Shown here piece after piece: positions 49,644 through 55,215 of a DNA stretch of 64,000 bases. Within the stretch, counting starts at the first letter, position 1, and each line of letters starts with the position of its first letter. The notes beneath the pieces were generated by a model, which was given only the letters and a program-made list of their open reading frames with translations, ran no database searches and had not been told where the DNA came from. The translations under genes were made by a program, and so were the position numbers. Source of the stretch: Thermoanaerobaculia bacterium (GTDB lineage Bacteria > Acidobacteriota > Thermoanaerobaculia > Gp7-AA8); contig DASYLL010000458.1 of NCBI GenBank assembly GCA_036009605.1, positions 8,829-72,828 on the forward strand, read 5' to 3'.

Positions 49644-51179
49644 CTACTTTCCGAGCGGAATGCTTCCGATCAAGTACTTCAAATCTTCATCGCGCCAGCG
49701 GATGCCGCCGCCGAATACGAATGAAGTGTCATTGAGCGCGTTGTCGATGCCGGAGTTGATGAAGAGCTGCGGCGTGTGCGGTTTCTCGTGGCGGAAGACG
49801 TATTCGCCGAGGAGGCGGAGGTGCGGGAGATCGTCGCGTTTTTTCCCGAAATCAAAGGCTTCGCCGGTCACGCTGAGACGATCGCTGAATCGATAGTCCG
49901 CGCCGACGCCGCCGGTCGAATCGAACAGACCGACGCGCACCGAGAGATCGTCGAGCACCCATCCCGCCTGCGCAGAGAGCAGGAAATCGCGATCGTATTT
50001 CGTGGTCTCGGTGACGATCGTCGTCGACTCGCCCGTCGCCGGATTCGTGCGCGTTTCGATCTGCGTCTTCTCGCGCTTGCGGCCGCGCGGATCGTCCGCG
50101 AGCTCGATGTTGTAGAAGCGGTTGCGATCAGGATTCGGGACGAGCCGCAGTCCGATCGCCGAACGCGCACTTCCCTCCACCATCTTCACGCCATCGACCT
50201 CGGAATCGCTGAGACCCGCGTAGTAATCGGCCTTGATGCCGAGGTCCATCTGAATGCGATTCGCGCGTCCGAGCGTTTCCTGCAGCGACTTCACGCCACC
50301 TTCGACAGACGCGAGCGCGCCAGTGAGACGATCGTGCGCTTCGTCGCTGTAGAACAGCTTGCCCATCGTCCCCTCGCCGCTCTTCACCTGGCCGGTGATG
50401 GCGTTGAGGTTGTCCGCGGTCACACGCAGATCGGCAGAGAGCCCGCGCAGGTTCGTCACGACTTCGCGCACGTCGGGACGATTCTCATCGACGGTTCCGC
50501 CGATCTGATTCGCAACGCGATCGAGCGTCGCCGCGAGGCGCGGAATCTCGGTACGCAGATGCGCCGTGATCTCGCGTGTGTTCAGCAGCGTTGCATCGAC
50601 GTTCTCGCGATTCGCAGCAATCAGCAGTCGCACGTCGGCAGTGATGCCACGAACGTTCTCCACGATCTCTTCGAGACGCTGCTGGCCCGTTGTTCCGCCC
50701 ATCACCGCGCGCATCGAAGTCGTGATCGCCTTCACATCCGCAGCGATTGCCGCGACCTGATCGGTCACGTCATCGAATGTCGCCGGCTGCGTTCCGGGAA
50801 GCATCACGACCGTGTTGCTCGGCAGCACCGGCGCGTTCGCCGAGCCGGGATCGAGCTCGATGTACTTCTCGCCGAGGAGTCCGAGGTTGGCGACCTTCGC
50901 CTGCGCATTCGCGTGGAGAGGCACGTCATCATCGACCTGCAGCGTCACCTCGGCGCGCCCGTCCGGCAGCACCTTGATGTCGGTGACATGTCCCTTGCGA
51001 ACGCCGGCGATGCGCACGGCCGACTCGTCGTCGAGTCCCGCAACGTCTTCGAACACGGCCTTCACCACCCGCGTCGTCCGCGAGCGACTGAGACTGATGT
51101 CCTCGATCCGGAGGACGAAGTAGCCGAGAACAGCCAGCGCGATCAACATCACGATGCCGACTTTTGCAGCAGAAGTCAT
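49644..51179 (-). CDS. MlaD/MCE-family protein with long C-terminal extension
   Basis: N-terminal TM segment plus MCE domain (VKAVFEDVAGLDDESAVRIAGVRKGHVTDIKV), helical repeats and a beta-rich C-terminus; 511 aa. Confidence 0.75.
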   Translation of the reverse strand: MTSAAKVGIVMLIALAVLGYFVLRIEDISLSRSRTTRVVKAVFEDVAGLDDESAVRIAGVRKGHVTDIKVLPDGRAEVTLQVDDDVPLHANAQAKVANLGLLGEKYIELDPGSANAPVLPSNTVVMLPGTQPATFDDVTDQVAAIAADVKAITTSMRAVMGGTTGQQRLEEIVENVRGITADVRLLIAANRENVDATLLNTREITAHLRTEIPRLAATLDRVANQIGGTVDENRPDVREVVTNLRGLSADLRVTADNLNAITGQVKSGEGTMGKLFYSDEAHDRLTGALASVEGGVKSLQETLGRANRIQMDLGIKADYYAGLSDSEVDGVKMVEGSARSAIGLRLVPNPDRNRFYNIELADDPRGRKREKTQIETRTNPATGESTTIVTETTKYDRDFLLSAQAGWVLDDLSVRVGLFDSTGGVGADYRFSDRLSVTGEAFDFGKKRDDLPHLRLLGEYVFRHEKPHTPQLFINSGIDNALNDTSFVFGGGIRWRDEDLKYLIGSIPLGK

Positions 51180-51760
51180 TTCTCACTCCGCAGCGGGTCC
51201 AGCCCCGCCCGTCGCAACATCAGGAAAAGCGTAGCAAGCGGCAGTCCGACTACGTTGGTGTAGCTGCCGTGGATGGATTCGATGAACATGGCGCCGAGGC
51301 CCTGCACGGCGTACGCGCCGGCTTTGTCGAGGGGCTCGCCCGTGCGGACGTACCACTGAATCTCCTCCGCGGAGAGCGGCAACATCCGCACCTCGGACTC
51401 GGCGACGCGCGTGTCACGGTACTCGCGTTCCGCGTTCTCGAGCGTGACGCCGGTGTAGACGATGTGTGTTTTGCCCGCGATCGTGCCGAGCATGCGCGCG
51501 GCGTCATCGCCGTCGACCGGCTTCTCGAGCAGCTCTTCGCCGAGGAGGACGGTCGTGTCGGCGGCGATCACCCAGCGCGACGGATGCACGCTCGCCAGCG
51601 CCTGCGCCTTGTCGCGCGAGAGTCGCGCCACGTACTCCTCCGGCGCCTCGCCCACGGCTCGAACCTCGGGCACGTTGCTCGGAAGCACGTCGAACTCGAG
51701 ACCGATCGACGAGAGCAGTTCGCGTCTGCGGGGAGACGCGGAGGCCAGGATGAATTTCAC
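51176..51760 (-). CDS. maf: Maf-like nucleoside triphosphate pyrophosphatase
   Basis: ILASASPRRRELL N-terminus typical of Maf; 194 aa. Confidence 0.85.
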   Translation of the reverse strand: MKFILASASPRRRELLSSIGLEFDVLPSNVPEVRAVGEAPEEYVARLSRDKAQALASVHPSRWVIAADTTVLLGEELLEKPVDGDDAARMLGTIAGKTHIVYTGVTLENAEREYRDTRVAESEVRMLPLSAEEIQWYVRTGEPLDKAGAYAVQGLGAMFIESIHGSYTNVVGLPLATLFLMLRRAGLDPLRSEK

Positions 51761-51773
51761 GTTGCCGATCTTA

Positions 51774-52247
51774 TTACGAGGCTCGCGTGATGCTGAGAAT
51801 CACCACGAAGCTCGCCTCGGCGACGATCTTGTAGATGATGCGGATCTCGCCGGAGCGCTGCGACCAGAGACCCTTCAACGGCTCGAACAGCGGCGCGCCC
51901 GTGATCGGATTATCGTTGATTCTCGCCAGCGCAGAGAGCAGGAGACGGCGTTCGATGCCGGTGACCGCGGCGAGACCTTCCGTTGCTGCGCGCGAGACGC
52001 GCAGTCGCGGCAGACGACGATCGAACTCAGCAGGTGTCTCTTCGTCCGCTTCGGAGATTCTCGCAAAGAGCAGCGAATCGTTGGCAATCTCGATCGTCTC
52101 GCGCAACGCGAGGTACTCGTCATACGAGACCAGCACGGCAACGGGACGGCCGCTGCGCTCGAAGACGGTCTGCTGTCCCTGCGCCTCGACCTCGCGCAAC
52201 AGATCGCGCGTGTCTTCCGACAGGTCGAGGACGTCGATCTTTTTCAC
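51774..52247 (-). CDS. Single-ORF in-frame fusion of a Phd/YefM-type antitoxin domain and a ParE/RelE-type toxin domain
   Basis: Residues 1-75 carry the YefM signature QTVFERSGRPVAVLVSYDEYLALRETIEIANDSLL. Residues 80-157 carry the ParE/RelE signature LRVSRAATEGL...ARINDNPITGAPL..LKGLWSQRSGEIRIIYKIVAEASFVVILSI. There is no stop codon between them. Confidence 0.6.
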   Translation of the reverse strand: MKKIDVLDLSEDTRDLLREVEAQGQQTVFERSGRPVAVLVSYDEYLALRETIEIANDSLLFARISEADEETPAEFDRRLPRLRVSRAATEGLAAVTGIERRLLLSALARINDNPITGAPLFEPLKGLWSQRSGEIRIIYKIVAEASFVVILSITRAS

Positions 52248-53107
52248 GAGACCGCGTCTTTGAGGTAATCGCGGAACTCGCGCCCGAGCTTCGGATGCCG
52301 CAGTGCGTAGTCGACGGTCGCTTTCAGGTAGCCGAGCTTCTCGCCTGCGTCGTAGCGCGTGCCTTCGAACACATATCCATAGAAATCACCTGCGCGGACG
52401 AGCTCGGCCAGCGCGTCGGTGAGCTGAATCTCGCCACCCGCGCCCTTCTCCGTCTTTTCGAGCAGCGGGAAAACATCCGGCGGGAGGATGTAGCGTCCGA
52501 TGATCGCGTAGCGCGACGGCGGGTTCGTCTTCGGCTTCTCGACCATTTCCGTGACGCGAAACCGGCGATCGGTGACGAGCTCGCCGGCCACGATGCCGTA
52601 GCGCGACGTCTCTTCCTCCGACACTTCCATCAACGCGACGACGGGACGCCCCGTATCTTCGAACACGCGCCGCATCTGCAGCAGCGCTGGGATTTCCGCA
52701 AGGATGACGTCATCCGGCAACACGACCGCGAACGGCTCGTTTCCGACTGCATCACGCGCAGTGAGCACGGCGTGTCCGAGCCCGAGGGCTTCTTTCTGGC
52801 GCACGGCGATGAGATCGACCATGCGGCTGACGGCGTCCACTTCCGCGAGCAACTCGTCCTTGCCGCGCTCGCGCAGCGAGCGTTCGAGCTCGGACGTGCG
52901 GTCGAAGTGGTCGAAGATCGACTCCTTTCCCTTCGACGTCACAATGATGAGCTTGTCGAGCCCCGAGTCGCGCGCCTCTTCGATGCCGTACTGCAGGATC
53001 GGCTTGTCGACGAGCGGCAACATTTCCTTGGGGATGACTTTGGTGGCGGGGAAGAATCGCGTGCCGAAGCCGGCACAGGGAAAAACGCAAGTGCGCAAGG
53101 GGTTCAT
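52244..53107 (-). CDS. galU: UTP--glucose-1-phosphate uridylyltransferase
   Basis: N-terminal PCAGFGTRFFPATKVIPKEMLPLVDKP nucleotidyltransferase motif; 287 aa. Confidence 0.9.
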   Translation of the reverse strand: MNPLRTCVFPCAGFGTRFFPATKVIPKEMLPLVDKPILQYGIEEARDSGLDKLIIVTSKGKESIFDHFDRTSELERSLRERGKDELLAEVDAVSRMVDLIAVRQKEALGLGHAVLTARDAVGNEPFAVVLPDDVILAEIPALLQMRRVFEDTGRPVVALMEVSEEETSRYGIVAGELVTDRRFRVTEMVEKPKTNPPSRYAIIGRYILPPDVFPLLEKTEKGAGGEIQLTDALAELVRAGDFYGYVFEGTRYDAGEKLGYLKATVDYALRHPKLGREFRDYLKDAVS

Positions 53108-53145
53108 GCGGGGCGGAGGATATCAGGCGCGCGCGGCGCGCGTGC

Positions 53146-53226
53146 CTTTGTCGGTTGTCAGTTTCGGTTGTATCGGCCGTGTCGCGAGAACCCACAGACA
53201 ACCGACAACCGACGCCTGACAACCGC
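53146..53226. repeat. Palindromic repeat family A copy 4
   Basis: CTTTGTCGGTTGTCAGTTTCGGTTGTA ... CAGACAACCGACAACCGACGCCTGACAACCG, in the divergent galU/BNR intergenic region. Confidence 0.7.
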
Positions 53227-53295
53227 GGCGAAGTACGCAAAAGGCGCAGCCTTTGCTAAAGCGCCGTGTGGTAAAACTATCGTTCACGGGCGGGT

Positions 53296-55215
53296 ATGCG
53301 TAAAGTCCTCTTCTCTCTGGTAATTGTTCTGATCGCGGGAACAGCTTCGGCGCAGTGGCGGCGCGCCGGTTTGTACGGCGCGGATGTCCGCGCACTCATC
53401 GCGGATCCCGCGGCTCCCGACACTCTCTACCTCGGCACCAGCGGCGGCGAGATCTACGTCTCGCGCGATGGTGCGAAGAGCTGGACGAATCCGCGTTACG
53501 GCGTCCCGTTTCCGCAGTACATCGTCGACAACCTCGTCCTCGATCGCGAGGGCAAGCTCTGGGCGGCGTGCTGGGGACTGTGGGGCGGCGGTGTGATCGC
53601 GGTCTCAAAGGACGGCGGCCGCACGTGGGAACGCCGCGATGCCGGTCTCGAGGACTTCTCCGTCCGCGCCATCGCCATCGATCAGAACGATGCGAACGTC
53701 ATCGTCGCGGGTGGACTCACCGGCGTCTACCGCAGCCTCGACGCGGGTCGCACGTGGGAAAAGATCTCGAATCAGGAACAGGTCGAATCGCTTGCAATCG
53801 ATCCGCGCTCGCGCGATCGCATCTTCGTCGGCACGTGGCGCCAGGGCTGGCGCACCGATGACGGCGGCAAGGCGTGGAAGCACATCGCCGAGGGGATGGT
53901 GCTCGACACGGACATATTCTCGATCACCATCGATCCGAAGCAGCCGGACAACGTATGGGTCGCGACGTGCGGCTGGGTTTACAACTCGCTGAACGGCGGC
54001 GACAAATGGACGCGCTATCGCGACGGCTTCAACAACCGCCGCATCCATGACGTCGACATCGATCCGTGCGATGAAGACACGGTCTACGCGGGCTCGGTCG
54101 CGGGGCTCTATCGCTCCGACGACAAGGGCAAGAGCTGGTACGTGATGTCGGATGAAGGCCTGGTCATCAATTCGGTCGTCCTCCATCCGCAGCGCCCACA
54201 GCGCATCATCCTCGGCATCGAAGGCGACGGCGTCTACATCTCGCACGATCGCGGACAGACCTTCCAGCGCACCTCGGACGGTCTGCACAACCTCCGCATC
54301 ACGACCATCGCACTCGATCCATTCGAAAAGGATCGCGTGTTTGCAGCAGTCGTGTTCGGCGGCGCGGCATCCGGTATCTATCGCTCCGATGACGCCGGCA
54401 AGACGTGGGCAAAAGCGAGCACGACGCCGCTGCCCGAAGTTCTGTCGCTGACAATCGCCTCGGAAGCGGATGCCGAAGTGAAGTTTCTCGCGGGAACAGA
54501 GAAGGGCGTGTTCTGGAGCGCCGACGCGAAAGAATGGACGCAGGCCGAGCCGTCAAGCTTCCCCGTTCGCTTCGACAAAGTGCTGCGCTTCAATCGCACG
54601 CGCTCGTTCGCCGCAACCGCGGAAGGCGTCTTCACGACTCGTGACGCCGGCAAGAGCTGGTACCGCCTCGGCGGCGCGAAGAACCGCGCCGTCGACATCG
54701 CCATCGGCACGCTCAATGGCAACAAAGCGCTCTACGCGCTGACCGCAGCAGGCCTGGAAGTGTTCGACGGCACGAACTGGTCAACGATCACCGATGCGCC
54801 CTCGCGCGGACGCTCGATCGCCGTACGCAACGCCGGCAGCAACGAAGTGGTCTTCGTCGCGGGCACGCAAGGCGTGAAAGCCGGCGTGATCAACGCGTCC
54901 GGTACGTGGGTACCGGCGGAAGCACCGGATGCGCAATTCGCAACCGTACACGGCGGCAGCCGCACCCTGTTCCTGACATCAAGACAACAGCGCGAGATTC
55001 TCGTCGGCGAACCGATCGACGGTCAGTGGAATCAGCTCACGCTCCCCGCGAGCAACACCGACGTCGCGTCCGTCGTCCCCGATCCGTTCATCCGCGACCG
55101 GTTCTACATCGGGACGCTCGGCGATGGCGTGTTCGTGTACGAAGGAAAAGCGGATCGGTACGTCGCGAAAGTGCGGGATACGAATACCGCGCAATTGACG
55201 GGTGGGGCGCAGTAG
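53296..55215 (+). CDS. Secreted BNR/Asp-box repeat protein (sortilin/Ycf48-like beta-propeller)
   Basis: Signal peptide VLFSLVIVLIAGTASAQ, and multiple S-x-D-x-G-x-T-W Asp-box motifs (SRDGAKSW, SKDGGRTW, SLDAGRTW, TDDGGKAW, SDDKGKSW, SDDAGKTW, TRDAGKSW). Confidence 0.75.
   Translation: MRKVLFSLVIVLIAGTASAQWRRAGLYGADVRALIADPAAPDTLYLGTSGGEIYVSRDGAKSWTNPRYGVPFPQYIVDNLVLDREGKLWAACWGLWGGGVIAVSKDGGRTWERRDAGLEDFSVRAIAIDQNDANVIVAGGLTGVYRSLDAGRTWEKISNQEQVESLAIDPRSRDRIFVGTWRQGWRTDDGGKAWKHIAEGMVLDTDIFSITIDPKQPDNVWVATCGWVYNSLNGGDKWTRYRDGFNNRRIHDVDIDPCDEDTVYAGSVAGLYRSDDKGKSWYVMSDEGLVINSVVLHPQRPQRIILGIEGDGVYISHDRGQTFQRTSDGLHNLRITTIALDPFEKDRVFAAVVFGGAASGIYRSDDAGKTWAKASTTPLPEVLSLTIASEADAEVKFLAGTEKGVFWSADAKEWTQAEPSSFPVRFDKVLRFNRTRSFAATAEGVFTTRDAGKSWYRLGGAKNRAVDIAIGTLNGNKALYALTAAGLEVFDGTNWSTITDAPSRGRSIAVRNAGSNEVVFVAGTQGVKAGVINASGTWVPAEAPDAQFATVHGGSRTLFLTSRQQREILVGEPIDGQWNQLTLPASNTDVASVVPDPFIRDRFYIGTLGDGVFVYEGKADRYVAKVRDTNTAQLTGGAQ

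Follow-up and report, generated by a model that had tools for sequence, protein, structure and literature searches.

What does a toxin-antitoxin (TA) module do inside a housekeeping operon when both of its parts are made as one chain? The question is raised by a stretch of 64,000 nucleotides from a Thermoanaerobaculia bacterium (GenBank assembly GCA_036009605.1, contig DASYLL010000458.1, positions 8,829 to 72,828 of the forward strand), which is called the window here. Between galU and maf it carries a gene on the minus strand (51774..52247; GTG start, 157 amino acids, TAA stop) that joins a RelB/YefM-like antitoxin domain and a RelE-like domain in a single chain. The same operon position is occupied by this module in more than 80 species, as one gene or as two, and all orthologues compared lack the C-terminal segment on which the toxicity of the closest solved toxin depends. 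We lean towards reading the module as a co-opted and disarmed housekeeping factor of RelBE descent that works as a complex and releases no free poison.

An earlier note on this DNA, made from the sequence alone, had described an in-frame antitoxin::toxin fusion inside the galU-maf operon, and this description held. The coordinates were confirmed, as were the overlap of 4 bp between the galU stop and the fusion start (GTGA, 52244..52247, minus strand), which points to translational coupling, and the gap of 13 bases between the stop of the fused open reading frame (ORF) and the start of maf. The family motifs quoted in the note were located in their places. No stop codon separates the halves; according to the ORF list and the sequence, the frame is uninterrupted from 52247 to 51774. 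In addition, no ATG, GTG or TTG was found in frame at residues 55–105, so that in the window the RelE-like domain can only be produced as a part of the fusion.

Identity of the two halves

The N-terminal domain (residues 1–70; 52038..52247, minus strand) is of the Phd/YefM (RelB) type and presumably serves for dimerisation and DNA binding. Residues 1–73 passed the cut-offs of two family models, with 37.4 bits for PF02604 (gathering threshold 29.8), a 74-position model, and 30.9 bits for TIGR01552 (cut-off 20.8). Phd/YefM was matched by all 103 members of the family alignment. When this half was searched alone, RelB1 (9g12_C) and Rv2865 (3g5o_A) of Mycobacterium tuberculosis were the best PDB sequence matches. 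R31 is invariant in the family and aligns with the arginine of 'ITR' in RelB1. In YefM, R10 and R31 are the basic residues that bind the operator, and R31 is required for DNA binding (PMC4803016). The equivalent of R10 is ambiguous, as helix alpha1 differs in length; the invariant R14 is a candidate.

The C-terminal domain (residues 81–157; 51777..52007, minus strand) stayed below the cut-offs as a single sequence, with 15.1 bits for PF05016 (cut-off 23, E=0.034) and 15.3 bits for the YoeB model TIGR02116 (cut-off 51.8). The clear signatures claimed before for both halves were thus found for the N-terminal one, while the claim was overconfident for the C-terminal one on single-sequence evidence. 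The weak match was upheld by the family: PF05016 was reached individually at E<=0.01 by 87 of the 103 members (best 1.2e-6). A profile of the 103 homologues was searched against all PDB sequences. On RelBE2 (3g5o) it matched Rv2865 at positions 13–75 and the toxin Rv2866 at 81–155 (E=1.7e-5), and on RelBE1 (9g12) it matched RelB with E=8e-4 and RelE1 with E=6.4e-4; the toxin matches span positions 81–156. The YoeB label was dropped in favour of a RelE1/2-like one with the TIGR02116 score given above and a PDB match of E=0.24.

An AlphaFold2 model computed on the family alignment (mean predicted local distance difference test, pLDDT, of 89; predicted template modelling score, pTM, of 0.75) contained strands at residues 79–84, 127–132, 135–142 and 147–155 and helices at 86–94 and 97–112 in the RelE-like half. 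This corresponds to beta1, alpha1, alpha2 and beta2–beta4 of the RelE fold; the domain terminates right after beta4, without helix alpha3. With Foldseek, the top PDB structures were RelE1 (9g12_A), RelE2 (3g5o_B), Thermus RelE (2khe) and E. coli RelE (4fxe). Template modelling scores to the RelE structures were 0.74–0.80 on the target, with a probability of 1.00 for 9g12_A and 3g5o_B. The 103-sequence alignment has a near-invariant core in this half, 'RIxxDPIxGAPLFEPLKGLWSxR..lRiiYkIVaEA...R' (residues 109–155; 51783..51923, minus strand), that includes R131, R136 and R155. Judged by profile and model, the protein is a RelB(YefM-fold)::RelE fusion and not of the ParE type. Of the former designation as a ParE/RelE toxin, the RelE part was retained, with RelE1 and RelE2 of M. 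tuberculosis as nearest relatives, and the ParE part was not.

Catalytic residues and the missing C-terminal tail

In RelE1 of M. tuberculosis, which is the closest solved toxin, exchange of R60, R65, R85 or Y89 for alanine abolishes toxicity. R85 and Y89 correspond to R81 and Y87 of E. coli RelE; the tyrosine (Y87/Y89) is part of the C-terminal helix alpha3 (PMC12620021). In an alignment by hidden Markov model (HMM), R131 and R136 of the window protein fell on RelE1 R60 and R65 and were invariant in all 103 members. The arginines expected of a competent ribonuclease at the RelE1 R60 and R65 positions (R61 in E. coli RelE) are present. R155, conserved in 90 of 103 sequences (87%), aligns with RelE1 R84, the neighbour of the essential R85. 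There the chains come to an end. The window protein stops two residues after R155 and the other family chains between one and four residues after it, and a Tyr or His was found in just five of the 103 C-terminal tails.

The R-x-x-x-Y segment that follows beta4 was present in 19 of the 20 generic stand-alone RelE proteins that ranked nearest in the same search, but in none of the 40 fused and none of the 45 split orthologues at the galU-maf locus. The split forms, too, lack helix alpha3 and its Tyr. Their loss is therefore a derived trait shared by the entire galU-maf family and was not caused by the fusion.

Fused and two-gene forms

A protein search yielded 388 homologues, and among the 120 matches listed nearly all were full length (144–190 amino acids). 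The listed homologues came from several independent sources and were mostly labelled Thermoanaerobaculia; one of them is 96% identical and likewise has 157 amino acids. An exhaustive HMMER search gave 611 matches at E<=0.001 and 14 at E<=1e-30 among 1.84 billion cluster representatives. They comprised approx. 25 full-length fused representatives and stand-alone proteins of approx. 85 amino acids that matched one half only. Species-representative genomes were scanned with two peptide patterns, a procedure that shows presence of the module and not its absence. It led to 80 loci, all in metagenome-assembled genomes of Thermoanaerobaculia or Acidobacteriota, several of them labelled Gp7. The module is so far known from metagenome-assembled genomes only and from no cultured host.

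The state of every locus was assigned by tblastn and tracing of open frames. A single ORF ran across both halves in 36 of the 80 species, and two genes were found at the same locus in the other 44. Counted as 85 non-redundant loci with the window included, 40 were fused, 40 were split and five were split merely by one in-frame stop. No locus with one half alone was observed among more than 85 loci. The two-gene antitoxins have 85–90 amino acids and end with '...RGAMLxVEDLLxE', and the toxin-like proteins have 82–86 amino acids and begin with 'MWNDRLR...'. Their most frequent junction is an 11-bp overlap (16 species), and one two-gene pair was recovered on contigs from three separate samples. 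In the clade of the window, the junction was remodelled to the short sequence TPAEFDRRLP (residues 71–80; 52008..52037, minus strand). As the comparison of fused and split orthologues showed, it stands in place of the antitoxin tail with its stop and the 'MWND' start of the toxin.

When GalU, Maf and MlaD were concatenated for a neighbour-joining tree (67 loci, 1029 columns), the window fell within a large clade that is almost wholly fused, with three secondary splits. The remaining clades are mostly split and have scattered fused members. Fitch parsimony required at least seven changes between the fused and the split state on the 67 tips, compared with a mean of 22.7 and a minimum of 15 after shuffling of the labels. 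The state is therefore inherited and yet repeatedly switched. No direction is claimed for these changes because the tree was rooted arbitrarily and its branches carry no support values.

The fusion had been regarded as a rare feature, and this could not be upheld. The catalogue of fused antitoxin-toxin genes of the RelE/ParE superfamily holds 195 entries, including five prokaryotic YefM-YoeB fusions (Gerdes 2025, PMC11980606), and about half of the species studied here have the fused form, with at least seven switches.

As a separate observation, antitoxin and toxin lie 417 bp apart at one locus (L061, 1004–1422).

A conserved slot in the galU-maf operon

The surroundings of the module hardly vary. 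galU is located directly upstream at 86 of 89 loci and maf downstream at 88 of 89, the sole exception being cut off by the end of its contig. Where a locus extends far enough, mlaD nearly always comes next. On longer contigs, a wider block became visible that consists of an aldolase gene, a divergent BNR/sortilin-like gene, galU, the module, maf, mlaD, ddl and an ABC_tran_2 gene. Even two very divergent relatives that were found by profile search only (P0148 and P0135) lie within the identical block. The two-gene form has these neighbours as well.

Coupling to the neighbours is just as regular. The antitoxin start touches or overlaps the galU stop in every locus (by -1, -4 and up to -80 nucleotides), the 4-bp overlap with galU occurs in 31 of 39 scorable fused loci, and the toxin stop frequently overlaps the maf start, often by 4 bp. 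Thus, there is no intergenic space for a promoter or operator of the module's own. Canonical type II modules are defined by an autoregulated promoter and operator. Their two-gene layout is absent from the window and present at the loci of 44 of the 80 species, and their own promoter and palindromic operator were not found here. From the sequence comparison, the module is most likely a vertically inherited, long-standing resident of the galU-maf slot in Thermoanaerobaculia (Gp7) Acidobacteriota.

At three loci, 0.5–3.2 kb of additional DNA was observed between the module and maf: L026 (4435–7667), L029 (3612–5368) and L012 (4441–4956).

Disarmed complex or live toxin

If the module is a disarmed housekeeping factor, it may be pictured as follows. 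It would be translated by coupling to galU through the GTGA overlap, within an operon galU-module-maf-mlaD-ddl. The N-terminal domains would dimerise in the manner of RelB/YefM, and helix 58–69 together with strand 73–76, which have pLDDT values of 92–94 in the AlphaFold2 model, would hold the RelE-like lobe in the position that it has in the neutralised RelB2E2 complex. The product would then be a permanent 2:2 'complex' from one gene, with a YefM-type dimer at its core. Without helix alpha3 and the Tyr, the RelE-like domain is expected to be a weak nuclease or none, and its arginine-rich face (R131, R136, R155) may have been kept for nucleic acid or for the acidic antitoxin helix. The pair could regulate by binding DNA, or it could bind RNA or the ribosome as a factor that is co-expressed with envelope and division genes. 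Nucleic-acid binding would fit the invariant R31 and the arginine-rich side of the RelE lobe; candidate targets are DNA, mRNA and the ribosome. A function that needs both parts together would allow the covalent linkage to be gained and lost freely and would leave neither half alone at the locus.

A bolder version can be offered only tentatively, and we would put it at somewhat less than even. It holds that a RelBE module was anciently captured into a core envelope and division operon throughout a lineage of soil Acidobacteriota, lost its catalytic helix and is now an indispensable factor whose RelE-like half no longer kills but binds RNA, DNA or the ribosome. Recurrent fusion and fission would then be a natural experiment on action by the complex only.

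Several observations weigh against a disarmed module. R131 and R136, the equivalents of RelE1 R60 and R65, are invariant and R155 lies beside a third essential residue, as would be the case for an active nuclease. The active sites of the RelE family are plastic, and another residue could replace the missing Tyr, for example that at position 130, which is Tyr or His in 91 of the 103 members and Gln in the window. The antitoxin partner was never lost, so something could remain to be neutralised. The predicted packing of the domains was judged from pTM and pLDDT values only. Finally, no conserved palindrome was detected upstream of galU in a k-mer survey of 73 orthologous regions, so that no target site came to light for a role as regulator.

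Some of these points speak for the most serious competitor, a RelE-like domain that is still a ribonuclease, with R131, R136, R155 and a substitute acid/base. It would be inhibited in cis and activated by a triggered conformational change or by proteolysis in the N-terminal domain or the linker, like EzeT or CapRel. Such fused toxins under cis inhibition do exist (EzeT, PMC4803016; CapRel; the fused TA catalogue, PMC11980606), the C-terminal core is conserved as strongly as the N-terminal domain, and all 85 orthologues retain the antitoxin moiety next to the conserved arginines. We nevertheless consider this explanation unlikely, although it deserves to be taken seriously. The element missing from all 85 orthologues is the one in which single exchanges (R85A, Y89A) abolish RelE1 toxicity. 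Recurrent fusion and fission fit poorly to a mechanism that relies on the unequal stability of two separate proteins. Neither an autoregulated promoter nor an operator is found at the locus, the distribution is stable and syntenic rather than patchy, and the defence models of PADLOC gave no match. Moreover, the junction was modelled as ordered (strand 73–76, block pLDDT 92) and not as a floppy, protease-accessible linker. The earlier proposal that the fusion needs proteolysis or a conformational switch for activation presumes a live toxin. With the R-x-x-x-Y segment, on which toxicity of the closest solved toxin depends, lacking in all 85 orthologues, we regard a disarmed and co-opted module as likelier than a switchable poison, though some residual activity is conceivable.

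Selection and the remaining alternatives

A module that has lost its catalytic tail might also be a decaying relic, i.e. the drifting remnant of a former TA module without any function. Besides the lost tail, the variable parts of the protein fit such a decay. The linker ranges from 7 to 42 amino acids across the family. The alpha1/alpha2 hairpin (residues 85–106 of the window protein) is variable and occurs in two length classes of 49 sequences each, one with 22 residues and one with 11, so that half of the fused family has an 11-residue deletion in a core helical element. The rest of the chain speaks against a relic. Thirty columns are invariant over the 103 sequences at a mean column identity of approx. 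53%, and the Phd/YefM domain and the C-terminal core are near-invariant. The median pairwise ratio of non-synonymous to synonymous change (dN/dS) was 0.30 for residues 2–70 and 0.32 for residues 109–155, and compared with the closest relative it was 0.13 for the N-terminal domain and 0.06 for the C-terminal core; these values are rough, as many pairs are close to saturation at synonymous sites. Purifying selection acts on both domains. Linker and hairpin, which also carry indels, show an approx. twofold faster non-synonymous change. In addition, the module was kept in all of the more than 85 loci and never reduced to one half. A functionless relic is thus very improbable.

Less probable still is a gyrase poison of the ParE type as C-terminal half. 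PF05016, named 'ParE_toxin', was the sole Pfam toxin model matched and ParE structures appear in the Foldseek list, but E. coli RelE also belongs to PF05016 (PMC11980606), and the E-values of Foldseek favour RelE structures over ParE structures by about two orders of magnitude. The PDB profile search at E<=1 returned toxins of the RelE and YoeB types only and no ParE, and the partner domain has the Phd/YefM fold of RelB-like proteins and not the ribbon-helix-helix of ParD.

That the fusion in the window is a sequencing or assembly artefact, in which a missed stop or an indel joined a yefM/relB-relE pair, is the least credible explanation: two-gene orthologues and the five loci that are one in-frame stop away from fusion make it conceivable, but a missed stop is very unlikely given 388 homologues, nearly all full length among those listed, with single ORFs recurring in 36 independent genomes at species level and in metagenomic proteins that number in the hundreds and stem from different projects, a 96%-identical homologue of equal length, a near-uniformly fused clade around the window, a junction that is remodelled and shortened, without antitoxin tail or 'MWND' start, instead of a mistaken read-through, and no in-frame start codon for a separate toxin.

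Comparison with known systems

RelBE2 (Rv2865-Rv2866, 3G5O) and RelBE1 (Rv1247c-Rv1246c, 9G12) of M. tuberculosis are the best matches in sequence and structure for both halves together; their antitoxin chains are covered by the family profile at positions 12–75 and their toxin chains at 81–156. Common to them and to the window protein are a Phd/YefM-fold antitoxin, a RelE-type fold and conserved arginines at the RelE1 R60 and R65 positions. However, RelBE1 and RelBE2 consist of two proteins each, are encoded in stand-alone TA operons and need the C-terminal R85 and Y89 on helix alpha3 for toxicity, whereas the module in the window is one chain without this tail and lies in a housekeeping operon with no promoter space of its own.

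The window protein falls under the definition of a fused TA mono-gene, namely, an antitoxin and a BECR-fold toxin domain in one ORF (PMC11980606). It resembles the catalogued YefM-YoeB mono-gene fusions, in which one ORF likewise encodes a Phd/YefM domain followed by a BECR-fold toxin domain and for which dimers of the YefM domains are predicted (PMC11980606). Those fusions are sporadic and keep the catalytic '...HYE' C-terminus of YoeB (PMC11980606). The galU-maf family, on the other hand, is RelE1/2-like and tailless and is found in more than 80 species at a single conserved locus, in alternation with two-gene forms. Its signature motifs were not found in the supplementary tables of PMC11980606. 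E. coli YefM-YoeB has in common with it the Phd/YefM fold, the arginine equivalent to R31 and a toxin partner of the RelE superfamily. It differs in its autoregulation via TGTACA palindromes over its own promoter, none of which is conserved at galU-maf, and the YoeB match is weak.

EzeT and CapRel likewise combine toxin and antitoxin in one polypeptide, in their case with neutralisation in cis, and the freed toxin domain of EzeT was shown to be toxic (PMC4803016). Their folds and activities (a zeta kinase and a toxSAS pyrophosphokinase, respectively) are unrelated and their catalytic centres are intact, in contrast to the galU-maf family with its missing catalytic tail. A functional parallel is provided by GndRX of Legionella and NatRT of Pseudomonas, conserved TA-derived pairs of the core genome with low or no toxicity that need both partners and were read as domesticated (PMC12457610). 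These belong to the RES-Xre family, are conserved at the level of genus or species and form stand-alone operons, whereas the galU-maf module is of the RelBE type, is translationally coupled inside an operon and spans many species of a class.

Fused TA genes are therefore already known, and so are co-opted, non-toxic TA modules of the core genome, with GndRX as precedent (PMC12457610). What appears to be new is the fixed and coupled operon slot in more than 80 species, the repeated interconversion of one-gene and two-gene forms and the family-wide loss of helix alpha3 and Tyr. A literature search on Thermoanaerobaculia and toxin-antitoxin systems yielded nothing relevant to the galU-maf locus.

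The roles of chromosomal TA systems are debated, and well-documented co-opted ("domesticated") modules are few. Here, more than 85 orthologous RelBE-type examples are available that are inherited vertically, coupled to housekeeping genes and under purifying selection, and that lost a catalytic element and switched form at least seven times. A non-toxic RelE-like domain would clearly exemplify the reuse of a RelE fold for a core function, and the fused and split orthologues would be matched natural constructs on covalent linkage in TA pairs. If it is still toxic, a RelE nuclease would work without helix alpha3 and Tyr, and a TA module could persist for long inside a core operon.

Flanking genes and upstream sequences

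galU (52244..53107, minus strand), the first gene of the operon, encodes a UTP-glucose-1-phosphate uridylyltransferase and matched the equivalog model TIGR01099 with 333.3 bits (cut-off 326.8). Directly downstream of the fused gene follows maf (51176..51760, minus strand) for a nucleotide pyrophosphatase of the Maf family (PF02545, 205 bits; TIGR00172, 175.5 bits with a cut-off of 117.15). The next gene in the block belongs to the MlaD/MCE family (49644..51179, minus strand); its matches to the NCBIfam models MCE and MlaD were below the cut-offs, and Pfam MlaD was recorded for its orthologues. Long ORFs of 268–495 amino acids run antisense to maf, the fusion, galU and mlaD (51462–52268, 51983–53323 and 49776–51263, all plus strand). 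They are most likely stop-poor frames in GC-rich DNA and not genes. No match to the defence models of PADLOC was obtained.

A sigma-70 scan of 51100–53400 gave no promoter-like sites, and terminator-like sites were not above chance. Species-specific tandem repeats aside, a 'TGnTATCCT' box is the only element conserved upstream of galU across 73 loci. It ends approx. 7–12 nucleotides before the galU ATG in most of these regions (e.g. L009 and L071), with no Shine-Dalgarno sequence in between. In the window it reads TGATATCCT (53117..53125, minus strand), ends 9 nucleotides before the ATG and is the putative operon promoter. By its sequence and position we infer an extended -10 element, from which the galU operon would be transcribed with no leader or almost none.

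Short tandem repeats with units of 6–9 nucleotides were observed at the -35 position. They are species-specific and occur in the window (53148–53225) and in L011, L015, L018, L028, L033, L058, L063 and L071. The copies in the window are GGTTGTC/GACAACC, which also form inverted repeats of 10–15 nucleotides; in other species the units are CAACCGC, CTCAATC, GCTATCT, GGACTCA, GAGAGCT and CCCCAC. The direct and inverted GGTTGTC/GACAACC repeats were rejected as operators as they are absent from L001 and L003.

A second operator candidate, 'TTGTACCACA...AAGCAAAC', includes a YefM-like TGTAC half-site in some species. It was also rejected, because it lies at the promoter position of the divergent BNR-family gene and is degenerate (TTTTACCACA) in the window. 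As a bipartite motif 'TTGTACCACAGG-N-AAGCAAAC' it is located at approx. 53262–53290, about 18 nucleotides upstream of the ATG of the BNR/sortilin-like gene (53296–55215, plus strand), and was also seen in L009, L012, L021, L029, L036 and L045. It is probably the promoter or a regulator site of that gene. In L004 (3499–4074) and also in L020, a TetR-family gene is inserted directly upstream of galU, which there encodes 304 instead of 287 amino acids; the inserted gene may be a lineage-specific regulator of the operon.

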